This document shows, in pieces, positions 56,988 through 60,917 of a stretch of 64,000 nt of DNA. Source of the stretch: Acidimicrobiia bacterium (lineage in GTDB: Bacteria; Actinomycetota; Acidimicrobiia; Spongiisociales; Spongiisociaceae); contig JBFGLM010000016.1 in the NCBI GenBank assembly GCA_041576165.1, forward strand, positions 25,301-89,300, read 5' to 3'. The position numbers and the translations under genes are program-made. The notes under the pieces were generated by a model. The model did no database searches. It saw nothing but the letters and a program-made list of their open reading frames with translations, and was not told the origin of the DNA. The first letter of the stretch is position 1. Every line of letters begins with the position of its first letter.

Positions 56988-57066
56988 TGGGGTGACCGAG
57001 GGGACTTGAACCCCCGACCTCCAGGGCCACAACCTGGCGCTCTAACCGGACTGAGCTACGGCCACC
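56988..57066 (-). tRNA. tRNA-His(GTG)
   Basis: GGTGGCCGTAGCTCAG...CCAGGTTGTGGCCCTGG...GTTCAAGTCCCTCGGTCACCCCA; G-1 and CCA are encoded. Confidence 0.96.
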
Positions 57067-57109
57067 AAGTAGTAAGTGATCTTAGACGCTCCCCGGCCGC
57101 GGCCGGCCA

Positions 57110-57410
57110 GGGCGCGATGGGTTTCGGCCGCTCCAGCTCCAGCCACGGCCACCGGCGGAGCCGGCGAGCAGCACAGCCGCCACGCGAAGGCCAGCACCCC
57201 GGCGGCACAGCGCAGCAAGCCGCCACAAAAAGGGGGAGTTTGAGGGGGAACCCGCTGCGCTGTCCCCCTCAACCTGCATCGCAGCGACCTGCGCGGTGCG
57301 ATGCAGCAGGGAACAGGGCGGCAGAAGGCCGCTCCTCCAGACCTCGCCCCGAATCTTGATTCGGGGCGACACTCGGCCGGAGCCTGCTGCGGCCGAAACC
57401 CATCGCGCCC
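57110..57410. repeat. 301-bp non-coding cassette with 22-bp perfect terminal inverted repeats (MITE-like or structured nucleic acid)
   Basis: gggcgcgatgggtttcggccgc (57110-57131) is the exact reverse complement of 57389-57410; several perfect internal hairpins. Confidence 0.75.
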
Positions 57411-57478
57411 CCGGGAGGATTCGAACCCCCGACCAAGAGCTTAGAAGGCTCCTGCTCTGTCCACTGAGCTACGGGGGC
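57406..57478 (-). tRNA. tRNA-Arg(TCT)
   Basis: GCCCCCGTAGCTCAGTGGACAGAGCAGGAGCCTTCTAAGCTCTTGGTCGGGGGTTCGAATCCTCCCGGGGGCG. Confidence 0.96.
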
Positions 57479-57532
57479 GGTGATCACGGGACATTGCCGC
57501 ACGGCCGGCCATCCGGGAGCGGTCCGACCCTC

Positions 57533-57604
<72 letters not shown>

Positions 57605-57612
57605 AGGGCGCG

Positions 57613-58443
57613 TCATTGTAAACGCCGGTCTTGTGCGTTTCGATCCGATTGGCCCGCACGCCTTCGGCGCACGGCCTCCACATACCGGCCGGCCGCTTCG
57701 CGCCCTTCTGGATCTGAAATGGCCGCGAGGAAGCTATCGGCGTCCGACCAACTACGAGCAATCGCGACGGAGTGATCCGTGACAGCATTGACGTGCCGTT
57801 TGGTTGCTGCGATCGGGTAGGCGGGCTTCGCAGCGATGACAGCGGCCAGACCCGCCACCTCGCCCTCTAACTCGGCCGGCGGCACGACGCGGTTCACGAA
57901 CCCGGCGGCCAGCGCCTCGGGGCTCGTGAACGGCCGGCAGGTCATGACCAGCTCTTTGGCCAGGGCCGGGCCGATTTCTCGCACCAAGCGGGGGATGCCG
58001 CCCCATGCCAAGGGAATGCCCAGGTCTACCTCAGGGATGGAGAAATACGCGTCGTCTGCCGCGACCCGCAGGTCACACGCCGCCGCCAGCACAACGGCCC
58101 CGCCGACACAATGGCCTTGAATCTGCGCTATTGCGATCGGCCGCATTCCCTCGATCGCATCGGCCATCCGGCCACCGAGCTCGGCGACCCCCCGAGTTTC
58201 CAAATCGGGCCGCGCCCGCTGGAACATGTCGCGGTCGGCCCCGGCTGAGAAAGAGCGGCCGGCTCCTTTCACGACGACTACCCGGATGTTGGGCTGGCGA
58301 TCGAGCCAGGCGGCCGTTTCCGTGATCTCGCTCAGCATCTCAGGGCTGAGCGGGTTCAGCCGCTCCGGGTCATTGAGCGTCAGGGTCGCCACCGCACCCT
58401 CAACCTCGAGACATGTACGCGTAAGGCTGGGTAGCTGATCCAT
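57613..58443 (-). CDS. Enoyl-CoA hydratase/isomerase family protein
   Basis: FSAGAD, GHCVGG, ACDLRVAA, PEVDLG. Confidence 0.93.
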   Translation of the reverse strand: MDQLPSLTRTCLEVEGAVATLTLNDPERLNPLSPEMLSEITETAAWLDRQPNIRVVVVKGAGRSFSAGADRDMFQRARPDLETRGVAELGGRMADAIEGMRPIAIAQIQGHCVGGAVVLAAACDLRVAADDAYFSIPEVDLGIPLAWGGIPRLVREIGPALAKELVMTCRPFTSPEALAAGFVNRVVPPAELEGEVAGLAAVIAAKPAYPIAATKRHVNAVTDHSVAIARSWSDADSFLAAISDPEGREAAGRYVEAVRRRRAGQSDRNAQDRRLQ

Positions 58444-58530
58444 GCCGCTCCTCCGGCCGGGGGTCCGAACAATATCGCGCCAGTAAAGGACGGCGGGCTC
58501 GCCACCCGGGTCGCGTACAATGCCGCCTAC

Positions 58531-58604
58531 CGGGCTGTGGCGCAGTTTGGCAGCGCGCCTGCTTTGGGAGCAGGAGGTCGTCGGTTCGAATCCGACCAGC
58601 CCGA
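58531..58604 (+). tRNA. tRNA-Pro(TGG)
   Basis: CGGGCTGTGGCGCAGTTTGGCAGCGCGCCTGCTTTGGGAGCAGGAGGTCGTCGGTTCGAATCCGACCAGCCCGA; TACAAT -10 at 58516-58521. Confidence 0.96.
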
Positions 58605-58713
58605 CCGGCGTTGTTGGGTACCCCATTGTGGGGCCCACACGGCGTCGTGGGGGCCGACCAAGCGAATCGACTTGTAGCAGCGGGACGGCTGATCGTGCAA
58701 TAGGGTTGACCTG

Positions 58714-59436
58714 ATGCACCTCGTGATCATTACCGGCGGCTCCAGTGGGATCGGGCGCGCGCTGGTCGCAACCTGCCCGTACCCGGAGCCCCGCGTCATC
58801 GATATCAGCCGGCGCGGCGGTGGAGCAGCCGAGCACGTGGAGTCCGATTTGTCGACCGAAGCTGGATGGGACATCGCCACCGAGGTCTTTGAGCAGCACG
58901 TGGCCGATTTCGACGGCGAGAGAGTCGTCTGTGTGCTCAATGCGGGAACGCTGTTCCCGATCGGTTTCGCCGGGCACGTCGATGCAGCTGCGTACCGCCG
59001 CAATGTGATGGTCAACAGCGCCGCGCCCCAGGTTCTCGGCGACGCGTTTCTCCGTGCCGCTGCGAACACCGAAGCTCGCACCGATCTGGTCTTGATAGGG
59101 TCCGGAGCTGCGACGAACGCGTATCCCGGCTGGAGCTCCTATGGGGCCGCCAAGGCGGCTGCTGCGCAGTGGGTGCGCAGCGTGGGTCAAGAACAAGAGA
59201 TTCTCGGTACGGCAAATCATGTCTGGTGGATCGCTCCTGGGGTTGTGGCGACGCCGATGCAGGCTGAGATACGGGCCACTGGCGAAGACGCCTTCCCGGC
59301 CGTCCCGCGCTTCCAGCAGATGCACGACGAGGGGGAACTGCGCGAGCCGCACGATGTCGCGAACCAACTGTGGCGCGTTTTGGACCAGGATCATCCGAAC
59401 GGAGCGGTTCTCGACCTGCGCAGAATGATGAGTTGA
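58714..59436 (+). CDS. SDR oxidoreductase (benzil/sepiapterin reductase-like)
   Basis: TGGSSGIG, LNAG, SGAA...W.SYGAAK, APGVVATPMQ..IR. Confidence 0.9.
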   Translation: MHLVIITGGSSGIGRALVATCPYPEPRVIDISRRGGGAAEHVESDLSTEAGWDIATEVFEQHVADFDGERVVCVLNAGTLFPIGFAGHVDAAAYRRNVMVNSAAPQVLGDAFLRAAANTEARTDLVLIGSGAATNAYPGWSSYGAAKAAAAQWVRSVGQEQEILGTANHVWWIAPGVVATPMQAEIRATGEDAFPAVPRFQQMHDEGELREPHDVANQLWRVLDQDHPNGAVLDLRRMMS

Positions 59437-59623
59437 GGCAGCCGCGGCTTAGCAATAGGCGTTCGAGCACGACGGGCGAATGACCCAAGGATGTTTGCGG
59501 GGCTTCATCGGCTGAGCCCCCGAGGCAGCTGCCGGGCAAATAGAACGAGTTCCAAAACCGGTCGCGGCAACGCCACCAGTTGGCGGAGTAAACGCCAAGC
59601 TGCAGGGTCTTCGAGCCAAGCCG

Positions 59624-59696
59624 TGGGTCGCCCGGGACTCGAACCCGGAACCTGCCGGTTAAGAGCCGGATGCTCTGCCAATTGAGCTAGCGACCC
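59624..59696 (-). tRNA. tRNA-Lys(CTT)
   Basis: GGGTCGCTAGCTCAATTGGCAGAGCATCCGGCTCTTAACCGGCAGGTTCCGGGTTCGAGTCCCGGGCGACCCA. Confidence 0.96.
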
Positions 59697-60409
59697 GGCG
59701 TTAGATTACTGCCCAACCACAGGCGAGCCACATCGAGCCAGACCATTGTTCTAATCCAGGCGTCGGTGCTGCGCTGCATCCGGACGCGACACACACCCGA
59801 CGGCAGGTGGTTCTTTCGATGTCCGGTCCCGTCGGGTTTTATGAACGACTTCGTGAAGTCGGATTCCGCATCCAGCGATAGCTCCGTCGCCCAGTACCGT
59901 CGGGCAGCTTGCTCGTCGTTGTCGGCGTGCAGGTTCACGGTCGCACGGAACTGTGCGTCGGTAGCGTGGTAGGCACGTGTCCAATGCATGAACAGCCGCA
60001 ACGCCTCAGGTTCGCTGTTCGCGAGTTCTAGCCGGCGGCTCGTCTTGCTTCCCTCGCCCCAATAGAGCACTACCCCGGCCGTCCATAGGGGATCCGAAAG
60101 CATCCTGCTACCGCTGATGGCCGCTGAACGCTGGATTTCACGGATCTCTCTGCGCCGGCGCCATTGCGTGTCAATCTGCCGAGGTCGCCGAGCGCGCGAG
60201 CGACTCACAATCCCTTCGCGCTGGCGGTCGGAGAGTTCTATTCCTTTGCACCACTATGAAAGAGTGCTCTTACTCACTGGCACGTGTGACGCGATCTCGG
60301 CGTACGACAGCCCTTGTGCTCGGAGATCCCGAGCAAGCTCAAACTGCTCGGAGCGGCTCAAGGTCGGCCAGAGGCGCACCCGGCGCTGGACAGAGTCTGA
60401 CACCTCCAC
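59687..60409 (-). pseudogene. HTH + LAGLIDADG-like protein with one in-frame TAG (60254-60256)
   Basis: ARDLRAQGLSYAEIASHVPVSKSTLS*WC (HTH), then AGVVLYWGEGSK...LELANSEPEALRLF...YWATEL...GVCRVR; both parts are in the same frame. Confidence 0.75.
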
Positions 60410-60412
60410 GAC

Positions 60413-60428
60413 TCGAGCATATGTGCCG
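60413..60428. promoter_or_regulatory. Degenerate LexA-box-like site overlapping a candidate -10 (TATGCT, minus strand)
   Basis: tcgagc-atat-gtgccg compared with the actinobacterial consensus TCGAAC-N4-GTTCGA; several mismatches. Confidence 0.3.
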
Positions 60429-60498
60429 GTTATGACGGATTTCGATAGCGGTGCGCCGGAGATGCCGAGGACGGGACCAAGTACCATGGCACGGCGCC

Positions 60499-60582
60499 GC
60501 GGGTGTGGCGGAATTGGCAGACGCGCCAGGTTTAGGTCCTGGTGGGCATCGTCCCGTGGGGGTTCGAGTCCCTCCACCCGCA
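60499..60582 (+). tRNA. tRNA-Leu(TAG)
   Basis: GCGGGTGTGGCGGAATTGGCAGACGCGCCAGGTTTAGGTCCTGG...GTTCGAGTCCCTCCACCCGCA with a long variable arm. Confidence 0.96.
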
Positions 60583-60583
60583 C

Positions 60584-60774
60584 GGCAGTTTCGAGGGCTC
60601 AGCTGCTCGGAGAATCCTCCGGATTCTCGTCGCCGAGAACCAAAGACTTGCACGCCGTCCCAACAACACCAGGCAGCTTCGAAGGCTCAACTGCTCGGAG
60701 AATCCTCCGGATTCTCGTCGCCGAGAACCAAAGACTTGCACGCCGTCCCAACAACACCAGGCAGCTTCGAAGGC
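60584..60774. repeat. 88-bp tandem direct repeat (2 copies + 15 bp) with an internal hairpin
   Basis: Units start at 60584, 60672 and 60760; the two full units differ at 3 positions; hairpin gagaatcc-tcc-ggattctc. Confidence 0.92.
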
Positions 60775-60917
60775 CACTGGCTGCCATCCGGCGCAAGCTC
60801 CCGGCGCGTCATGAGCACCCTTGGGGTTCGCCGCAGTCACGCGGCCCGTCGCTACTCCGGTGCTGCGCTTGGTTCCCGCCTCGCCACAATCACTACCAGC
60901 GCTGGTACGTTGAGAGC

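Follow-up and report, generated by a model that had tools for sequence, protein, structure and literature searches.

A nonsense-interrupted gene beside tRNA-Lys in an Acidimicrobiia genome belongs to an unnamed gene family tied to the 5′ flanks of individual tRNA genes

We analysed a 64,000-nucleotide stretch of Acidimicrobiia contig JBFGLM010000016.1 (hereafter the window), concentrating on the gene that fills most of the space between its tRNA-Lys(CTT) and tRNA-Leu(TAG) genes. This gene, which is interrupted by a single in-frame TAG, belongs to a family of more than 5000 protein clusters, Streptomyces included, that has no name and whose main domain is covered by no Pfam model. Every subfamily keeps to the 5′ flank of a single tRNA gene, which for the subfamily of the window copy is tRNA-Lys(CTT). 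The reading that we favour, tentatively, is that of a homing-like nuclease gene that is induced by DNA damage and supplies part of the promoter of the tRNA it adjoins, with the window copy in decay. The features discussed below are as follows.

59687-60409, minus strand: nonsense-interrupted gene of the unnamed helix-turn-helix (HTH) plus alpha/beta (LAGLIDADG-like) family, Lys(CTT) subfamily
59623-59696, minus strand: tRNA-Lys(CTT), on which ARAGORN and Rfam agree; bases 8-10 are the stop codon of the upstream gene
60499-60583, plus strand: tRNA-Leu(TAG), on which ARAGORN and Rfam agree; divergent in the window
60236-60355, minus strand: N-terminal HTH, residues ~19-58, from a sub-threshold Pfam HTH match and from KorB and Spo0J HTH matches of the AlphaFold2 model (VIA-align)
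60254-60256, minus strand: in-frame TAG at codon 51, in the HTH recognition helix, at a variable column where homologues have T, G, N, S or V
59708-60103, minus strand: C-terminal alpha/beta domain, residues ~103-234, LAGLIDADG-like by structure only
60044-60064, minus strand: YWGEGSK motif, residues 116-122; Y116, G120 and K122 invariant and E119 at 99% in 134 sequences
59703-59708, minus strand: −10 box TAATCT of tRNA-Lys, in the gene's last codons, 6 nucleotides (nt) before the tRNA 5′ end
60416-60421, minus strand: −10 box TATGCT of the gene, 6 nt before the GTG
60434-60436, minus strand: GTC triplet, PafBC-type '-26 element', 12 nt upstream of TATGCT
60482-60487, plus strand: candidate −10 box TACCAT of tRNA-Leu, in surroundings that by eye resemble the tRNA-Pro promoter of relatives

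On the minus strand, the frame runs from a GTG at 60409 to a TAG at 59689-59687 (240 codons and the stop), and takes up 713 of the 802 bases between tRNA-Lys and tRNA-Leu. The list of open reading frames gives it as two same-frame pieces (59687-60208 and 60254-60583) because of the in-frame TAG at 60256-60254. The frame ends in T-P-G-R-stop, and the stop is formed by U8-A9-G10 of tRNA-Lys, an overlap of 10 bases. When the sequence was read again, the coordinates that a first-pass annotation had given for the frame, the stop overlap and both −10 boxes proved correct, and its view of the frame as a real gene was upheld by the finding of 527 homologues of ~233 amino acids. These came from a protein search with the TAG entered as X (527 of 1864 candidates at E ≤ 1e-3), are nearly all 233-268 amino acids long and carry the name 'hypothetical protein'; those with an organism name are from metagenome-assembled genomes (MAGs) of Acidimicrobiia. 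Read through the TAG, the window protein is 49-58% identical to intact homologues of this length and keeps all the invariant residues of the family. The genome has one copy of the gene, and a single tRNA-Lys(CTT).

The gene lies directly 5′ of a co-directional tRNA gene in 200 of the 215 loci that we compiled from Acidimicrobiia, other Actinomycetota (Streptomyces among them) and low-GC metagenomes, in agreement with the first-pass suggestion that homologues are enriched beside tRNA 5′ ends. Some counts include unpublished genomes (G028, G039, G198, G232, G372, G486, G558, G713, G423, G439 and G467; loci L087, L089, L138, L139 and L167), on which no conclusion depends. The Lys-type set comprises the best 80 of 541 relative-encoding stretches, with one genome per species scanned, and promoter and gap counts 'of 80' refer to 79 loci and the window. 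A same-strand tRNA-Lys(CTT) follows the gene in 79 of the 80, mostly with tRNA-Leu(TAG) next on the same strand; the exception (L050) has tRNA-Leu 354 nt downstream. In these relatives the tRNA-Pro, -Gly, -Arg and -His genes are divergent, and tRNA-Pro typically lies 58-63 nt before the start codon. The divergent tRNA-Lys/tRNA-Leu pair with which the first-pass annotation had linked the gene is therefore present in the window, but reflects a local rearrangement and not a trait of the family, since in 79 of 80 relatives tRNA-Lys comes after the gene. Between stop codon and tRNA-Lys, the gap measures +9 to +13 nt in 47 of the 80 loci, −10 in nine (the window and 8 others), where the stop coincides with tRNA bases 8-10, and −38 to −45 in a further nine, where it falls in the anticodon loop.

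Outside the window's order the same arrangement recurs at other tRNA genes. Among 20 weaker relatives from other orders of the class, 18 adjoin tRNA-Asn(GTT), one adjoins tRNA-Gln(TTG), and the twentieth is truncated and lies 261 nt from tRNA-Asn; in 15 of these 20 (Asn-type) loci, the open frame and the tRNA share 10-11 nt. Phylum-wide, a same-strand 3′ tRNA was found at 36 of 40 loci, or 33 of 37 without the unpublished genomes (Lys 14, Gln 14, Asn 5, Thr 2 and Pro 1 among the 36), and the remaining four comprise two with an opposite-strand tRNA-Asn and two with an upstream tRNA only. The large-genome genus with the Gln link is Streptomyces, going by the protein names in the sources. A metagenome scan with a single distant low-GC member as query yielded 80 loci with a mean G+C of 39%; a same-strand tRNA lies within −56 to +68 nt in 65 of the 75 that have downstream room (Gly(GCC) 49, Lys(CTT) 8, Arg(TCT) 4, Glu(CTC) 2 and Met(CAT) 2), and 10 have none. 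Eight of these ten exceptions form a low-GC subgroup (within L254-L262) whose members are 39-42% identical to P0174 and have no tRNA within 150 nt downstream; this part of the family may have moved away from the tRNA flank. In a FastTree phylogeny of 134 sequences, the 92 Lys-linked rows form one clade (support 0.90), as do the 25 Asn-linked rows (0.999) and the 15 Gln-linked rows (0.36), and the tRNA label changes 4 times, compared with a mean of 39 when labels are shuffled. Because relatives share labels, this clustering shows that the tie is stable and does not count independent events. Three genomes carry two paralogues at two different tRNAs. We also note a 92-nt 'tRNA-Arg(GCG)' reported by ARAGORN on the opposite strand inside one family gene (L010, 1929-2020), which is probably a false positive.

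Comparison between loci then locates two promoters at the edges of the gene. As the first-pass annotation had proposed, the gene's last codons contain the −10 box of tRNA-Lys: in 76 of the 80 loci, against 0-2 of 80 at five control offsets, a TANNNT hexamer ends 5-9 nt before tRNA-Lys, and in the other 4 it ends 10 nt before it; in many loci the TAA or TAG of this box is the gene's stop codon. Where the −35 of the tRNA would lie is consequently coding sequence. Asn-type genes, too, end in an extended −10 box ~10 nt before tRNA-Asn. At the upstream edge, 69 of 76 loci have a TANNNT whose end lies 6-7 nt ahead of an in-frame start codon; the mRNA is therefore probably leaderless, again as first suggested. 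Furthermore, a GTC stands exactly 12 nt upstream of TANNNT in 68 of these 69 loci (as TGTC in 60), any other spacing being found in at most 8. The same spacing characterises the bipartite motif of mycobacterial PafBC (RecA-NDp) promoters, given as tGTCgg(N10)tA(N3)T in a study of how mycobacteria respond to DNA damage, with a strictly conserved GTC in a '-26 element' and, as at recA, no −35 box (PMC8635444). Judged from these motifs, the Lys-type genes have a PafBC-type DNA-damage promoter (GTC-N12-TANNNT). Among Lys-type loci from other classes, all 13 have it, and a perfect CGAAC-N4-GTTC LexA box is present as well in 4 (10 of 10 and 3 of 10, respectively, without unpublished genomes). Asn-type loci have LexA boxes in 6 of 27 cases and the strict PafBC-type motif in 5 of 27, and several more have a TGTCACACC element together with a poorer −10 box. 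In internal coding control segments, the PafBC-type motif was found in 0 of 60 and the LexA box in 1 of 60.

The likeness to the mycobacterial promoters has its limits: the bases after GTC differ from 'gg', the damage induction in Acidimicrobiia is presumed by analogy, and in the usual arrangement the element also sits where the upstream element of the divergent tRNA-Pro promoter would be. The genome of the window encodes a tandem pair of adjacent WYL-domain genes (contig C32), candidates for the regulator, and the region upstream of its recA (L324, G000:C21, ~1270-1335) carries a perfect LexA box as well as GTC-N12-TANNNT in a form very like that of the window. Such a dual LexA and PafBC-type arrangement at recA is known from mycobacteria and is seen here in Acidimicrobiia. 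At the window gene itself, the weak LexA-box-like site that the first-pass annotation had placed at the −10 box was not recovered, as there is none at 60410-60440 with up to 3 mismatches to the actinobacterial box, and the promoter is of PafBC type instead. A generic sigma-70 scan for paired −35 and −10 hexamers found no promoter in 59500-60900, so that the promoter calls in the window rest on the comparison between loci. A look for RNA runs containing this stretch gave none. An inverted repeat that by eye seemed to link the upstream element with the first codons was set aside.

The contiguity of gene and tRNA could also be taken to mean that the protein acts on RNA, namely on a co-transcribed tRNA precursor or on the tRNA in processing, repair or quality control, as do LAGLIDADG RNA maturases; RNase P cleavage would then remove a stop codon that lies in the tRNA and so tie the yield of protein to processing. 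The gene adjoins one specific tRNA, strictly in the same direction, the two leave no space for a terminator, and the stops inside the tRNA in 9 of 80 Lys-type loci and the 10-11 nt overlaps in 15 of 20 Asn-type loci are all in keeping with this idea. We nevertheless consider it very improbable, as the tRNA has its own conserved −10 box and co-transcription is therefore unnecessary, promoters of the damage type fit DNA transactions, the HTH points to duplex DNA, and no RNA-binding family was matched in Pfam, NCBIfam or structure comparison.

What the protein might be is suggested chiefly by its predicted fold. The AlphaFold2 model, built from a 107-row alignment, has a mean per-residue confidence (pLDDT) of 94.6 and a predicted TM-score (pTM) of 0.77, and shows the HTH as helices at residues 5-50, followed by a pair of long linker helices and by an alpha/beta domain at ~103-231. 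An N-terminal HTH had been proposed at first pass and is borne out by the model, by a Pfam match below threshold and by relatives that exceed the HTH_23 cut-off of 24.6 bits (P0186 29.1, P0253 41.8 and P0198 69.9 bits); the window copy, with the TAG inside the helix, reaches 15.5 bits. When the C-terminal domain was compared with 48,161 chains using VIA-align, the best structural matches were LAGLIDADG domains, and a WhiA chain (8dy9_I) was among the matches. In addition, the motif helix, which spans residues 107-119 in the model, ends in Glu-Gly (E119 99%, G120 invariant) as in LAGLIDADG enzymes. The first-pass description of the protein as LAGLIDADG-like is weakly supported, by structure matches and by this helix; it has no counterpart in sequence profiles, and Foldseek searches of PDB and BFVD returned nothing at E ≤ 1e-3, the top rows being OmpA-like proteins and IspF. 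The C-terminal domain therefore appears LAGLIDADG-like by predicted structure and motif, which does not establish membership of the superfamily. Nor is the layout that of WhiA, which has two N-terminal LAGLIDADG-like domains and a C-terminal HTH: in the model the HTH comes first, the alpha/beta domain is single, and the acidic residue of the motif is kept. The window family further differs from WhiA in being tied to tRNA genes, dispensable and patchy, and the window protein has no match to WhiA in Pfam.

The family is large and well conserved. A profile of 107 homologues matched 5212 representative clusters (at 50% identity) at E ≤ 1e-3, of which 3073 were matched at E ≤ 1e-10 and 199 at E ≤ 1e-30. 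Sixteen distant representatives had HTH families only, or no domain at all, and look-alikes in the ESM Atlas, from Actinomycetota, Chloroflexota and Minisyncoccota, were all 'hypothetical' or HTH_23 proteins. For the window protein, Pfam found nothing in the C-terminal 173 amino acids, its only match being the sub-threshold HTH at residues 20-58; NCBIfam gave sub-threshold transposase HTH matches only, PADLOC gave no match, and sequence searches of PDB with the protein and with the family profile alike gave nothing relevant. In PHROGs, only HTH-containing 'DNA binding protein' families were matched, the match to phrog_5536 (unknown function) extending to residue 132. Literature searches on LAGLIDADG, HTH and tRNA genes, Acidimicrobiia tRNA clusters, Streptomyces tRNA-Gln, free-standing LAGLIDADG genes and reading frames overlapping tRNAs found, in the openings of abstracts, no paper on this family. 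Across 134 sequences of the Lys, Asn and Gln subfamilies, Y116, G120 and K122 are invariant, W53, G112, E119, W143, H161, W173 and G205 are 99% conserved, and R198 and N131 are conserved at 97% and 94%, so that the C-terminal domain combines an invariant Y-x-x-E-G-x-K motif with conserved N, D, H and R residues. The ratio of nonsynonymous to synonymous substitution rates (dN/dS) ranges from 0.10 to 0.16 across the six closest unsaturated pairs (dS 0.49-1.25) and does not exceed 0.19 in any computable pair, which indicates that intact copies are under purifying selection.

The window frame is a recently inactivated copy, broken by one nonsense TAG, and is decaying. The TAG noted at 60254-60256 in the first-pass annotation stands, without alternative letters, in contigs assembled from two sequencing runs (X1 record 3, covering 59626-60529, and X2 record 13, covering 60187-60548); both runs come from one study, which is possibly the source of the window itself, and have a depth of ~5-9x. 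The run from a second study has no coverage at this position. That depth, and the shared and perhaps identical origin of the two runs, leave some room for an unbroken copy from which the whole protein is made, the TAG being an error of assembly or consensus, an allele carried by a minority or a read-through codon, and two further points suit such a copy: every invariant residue downstream of the TAG is intact, and the TAG falls in a variable column. We regard this as improbable, because the TAG is present in two separately assembled runs with no variant listed, independent nonsense and frameshift copies are common among relatives, and the gene is missing from all 24 other searched genomes of the window's family, as fits ongoing loss.

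Those 24 genomes, many of them single-contig, contrast with the other families of the order, where 8 of 16 genomes have the gene. Of 401 genomes sampled across the class (completeness ≥90%), 101 gave a match, and strong orthologues were confined to the window's order, where they occur in 34 of 61 genomes of family f4, 13 of 31 of f2, 4 of 6 of f7 and 1 of 18 of f10; presence is mixed even within genera (g21 4/9, g19 3/5 and g34 3/6). Sixteen of the 58 same-order matches are visibly disrupted, 3 by one in-frame stop (G000, G370 and G211) and 13 as frame-split or fragmentary copies (G081, G413, G161, G291, G372, G357, G380, G392, G164, G176, G167, G040 and G317), and a further 5 are truncated at contig ends. 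Among the 80 species loci, two have a nonsense codon, a TGA (at an invariant Trp) or a TAA, at sites that differ from that of the TAG in the window. In G040, only the last 36 codons remain before tRNA-Lys, as would be expected if the 3′ piece of the gene holds the tRNA promoter; the same-genus genome G029 has the whole gene.

Empty sites in relatives, a point raised with the first-pass annotation, do exist: clean tRNA-Pro/tRNA-Lys sites measure 66 nt in G089 and 85 nt in G059 (each on one contig), 99 nt in G035 and 227 nt in G038. The last of these (L106, G038:C1, 1274-1500) has kept a GTCACA element and has a ~60-nt tandem duplication at the gene's place. In G036, the slot (L105, G036:C1, 1671-2570, minus strand) is occupied by another gene, encoding a 300-amino-acid AbiEi_4 plus DUF559/REase_MTES_1575 protein, in a genus of which 3 of 5 members carry the family gene. 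Like the family gene, it combines an HTH with a nuclease-like domain and is co-directional with tRNA-Lys in the same tRNA-Pro/tRNA-Lys slot; unlike it, this gene encodes a protein of an unrelated fold family, stops 92 nt short of the tRNA and has no promoter overlap. At five loci of the window's own family (L091-L095), tRNA-Lys(CTT) is preceded by a gene whose end, by eye, is rdgB-like (non-canonical NTP pyrophosphatase), with a −10 box at the same distance from the tRNA.

We also compared the history of the gene with that of its hosts, using genus codes in place of a species tree for genomes of which many are MAGs. A quick IQ-TREE phylogeny (LG+C20 PMSF) of 41 Lys-type genes from coded genomes, with 3 Asn-type outgroups and with G232 left out, gave two clades (SH-aLRT 96 and 99), and members of g10, g21, g24, g34 and g53 occur in both. 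The approximately unbiased (AU) test rejected monophyly of g24 (log-likelihood difference 134, p 1.2e-4) and of g34 (93, p 1.2e-4). The copy of the window falls in one of the two clades, beside a copy from another family (SH-aLRT 90). By this comparison of sequences, the gene tree does conflict with genus assignments. The possibility that the contig is a mis-binned contaminant was considered and rejected, as its valyl-tRNA synthetase (ValRS) is 63-69% identical to those of the assigned family and 60-64% to others (67% for one other); the ValRS-tRNA neighbourhood is common across the window's order.

A fixed site, empty sites, decayed copies and a tree at odds with organism grouping are together the behaviour of a free-standing homing element. 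The tentatively favoured mechanism would run as follows. The gene would be expressed from a leaderless mRNA upon DNA damage, as its promoter motifs suggest; the protein would be a site-specific nuclease that its HTH directs to the target, probably as a LAGLIDADG-like dimer, and would cut the unoccupied tRNA flank, into which the gene would be copied by recombination through the conserved tRNA genes on either side. We propose that the insertion is tolerated because the element brings with it the upstream half of the tRNA promoter, and that the element is hard to delete cleanly for the same reason. Copies would decay after fixation, and the window copy, with its TAG, may be at that stage. More tentatively still, the family as a whole may represent an undescribed class of bacterial selfish elements, in which a damage-induced, HTH-guided nuclease recognises a specific tRNA gene as DNA, homes to its 5′ flank and donates the upstream half of its promoter, with separate lineages in Actinomycetota and in uncultured low-GC bacteria dedicated to the tRNAs for Lys, Asn, Gln, Gly, Arg, Thr and others.

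Such an element would resemble free-standing LAGLIDADG homing endonuclease genes of the single-motif, homodimeric kind (for example I-CreI) in the structure matches of its C-terminal domain, in the helix ending in Glu-Gly, and in occupying a fixed site beside very conserved sequence, with presence and absence, empty sites, decayed copies and tree conflict. It would differ from them in having no profile similarity, in an extra helix in the core of the model, in the fused N-terminal HTH, in lying outside any intron or intein, in overlapping and supplying a tRNA promoter, in its DNA-damage promoter and in that cleavage is predicted only. The eukaryotic retrotransposons Ty3 and Dictyostelium TRE5 also settle at a fixed short distance 5′ of many kinds of tRNA genes. 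Those elements, however, target RNA polymerase III factors and are present in many copies per genome, whereas in the window family a single gene goes with each tRNA species and there is neither a transposase nor an integrase domain.

Several results weigh against a homing nuclease. At the level of sequence, the window protein has no match to LAGLIDADG families in Pfam at E ≤ 1, and in hhalign the profile of the C-terminal domain reached a probability of 0.06%, equal to the reversed control, against 25 LAGLIDADG_3 domains from actinobacterial genomes (5 of 30 loci, from unpublished genomes, having been left out). Searches with tblastn matched nothing in phages for a Streptomyces member, and nothing in plasmids for P0013. 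All 10 matching Streptomyces genomes that were examined have the Gln-type gene, which is 75-89% identical from species to species, lacks damage motifs (the PafBC-type motif is found in 1 of 15 Gln-type loci) and looks like a fixed host gene, so that some lineages behave like ordinary host genes. The record of loss is itself open to inflation: contig ends of disrupted copies were only partly checked and some frameshifts may be sequencing errors, and some absences would be assembly gaps, because 3 of 5 gene-less MAGs checked also lack a tRNA-Lys(CTT) hit. The genus groups of the AU test were named after the first tree had been seen. Finally, the flanking tRNA genes could drive allele exchange without a nuclease.

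Some of these observations would suit, instead, a host gene kept for the benefit of the cell, encoding a damage-inducible protein, either a factor that binds DNA or a nuclease for repair. The heavily transcribed tRNA genes beside it might be its site of action or under its control, or it might boost their output by read-through from the damage promoter, and its invariant polar residues could then form a ligand site and not a catalytic one. We consider this rather unlikely, because a trans-acting factor needs no place within 10 nt of one tRNA gene in nearly every genome, and because a gene of use to the cell sits poorly with the frequent loss, nonsense mutations and deletions in the window's order, with clean empty sites in complete genomes and with a gene tree at odds with genus assignments. 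The Glu-Gly of the motif, moreover, is kept, whereas WhiA has lost the acidic residue. The host-gene reading is nonetheless the most probable of the rivals, and has several points in its favour: an HTH joined to a second domain is the usual layout of one-component regulators, purifying selection is strong, the Streptomyces gene is present and well conserved in every matching genome examined, the link of each subfamily to its tRNA is old and has stayed stable without switching, and membership of a damage regulon is typical of repair genes. WhiA is an earlier example of a transcription factor built on a LAGLIDADG-like scaffold (8dy9_I; PMC10243135). The free-standing selfish element of the first-pass annotation has thus gained from the patchiness, the decay and the conflict between tree and taxonomy, and its other proposal, a regulator dedicated to tRNA genes, may yet hold.

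The surroundings of the window gene have been rearranged. The order in the window is His(-), Arg(-), Gly(-), Pro(+), an SDR gene (58714-59433, +), Lys(-), the family gene (-) and Leu(+), and compared with the 79 relatives the tRNA cluster (56988-60583) has tRNA-Pro on the plus strand and the SDR gene between tRNA-Pro and the family gene. The block containing both promoters, the gene and tRNA-Lys appears to be inverted relative to the usual order, and tRNA-Leu would now be fed by the sequence that resembles the tRNA-Pro promoter of relatives. Directly after tRNA-Leu, at 60584-60774, an 88-nt unit is repeated 2.2 times with 97% matches; each copy contains a short GC-rich inverted repeat and could be a duplicated terminator-like hairpin.

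For annotation, the family offers a simple rule, that of a gene placed directly before one tRNA gene and containing the promoter of that tRNA, which explains reading frames that seem to 'run into' tRNA genes and carries a warning that deleting such genes may take out a tRNA promoter. If the protein is a homing nuclease, the family would represent a new route by which a selfish gene becomes harmless, through promoter replacement and not splicing, and natural nucleases aimed at tRNA genes would be on offer. If it is a host factor, the DNA-damage response would be linked to particular tRNA genes. Either reading is directly testable in cultured Streptomyces.

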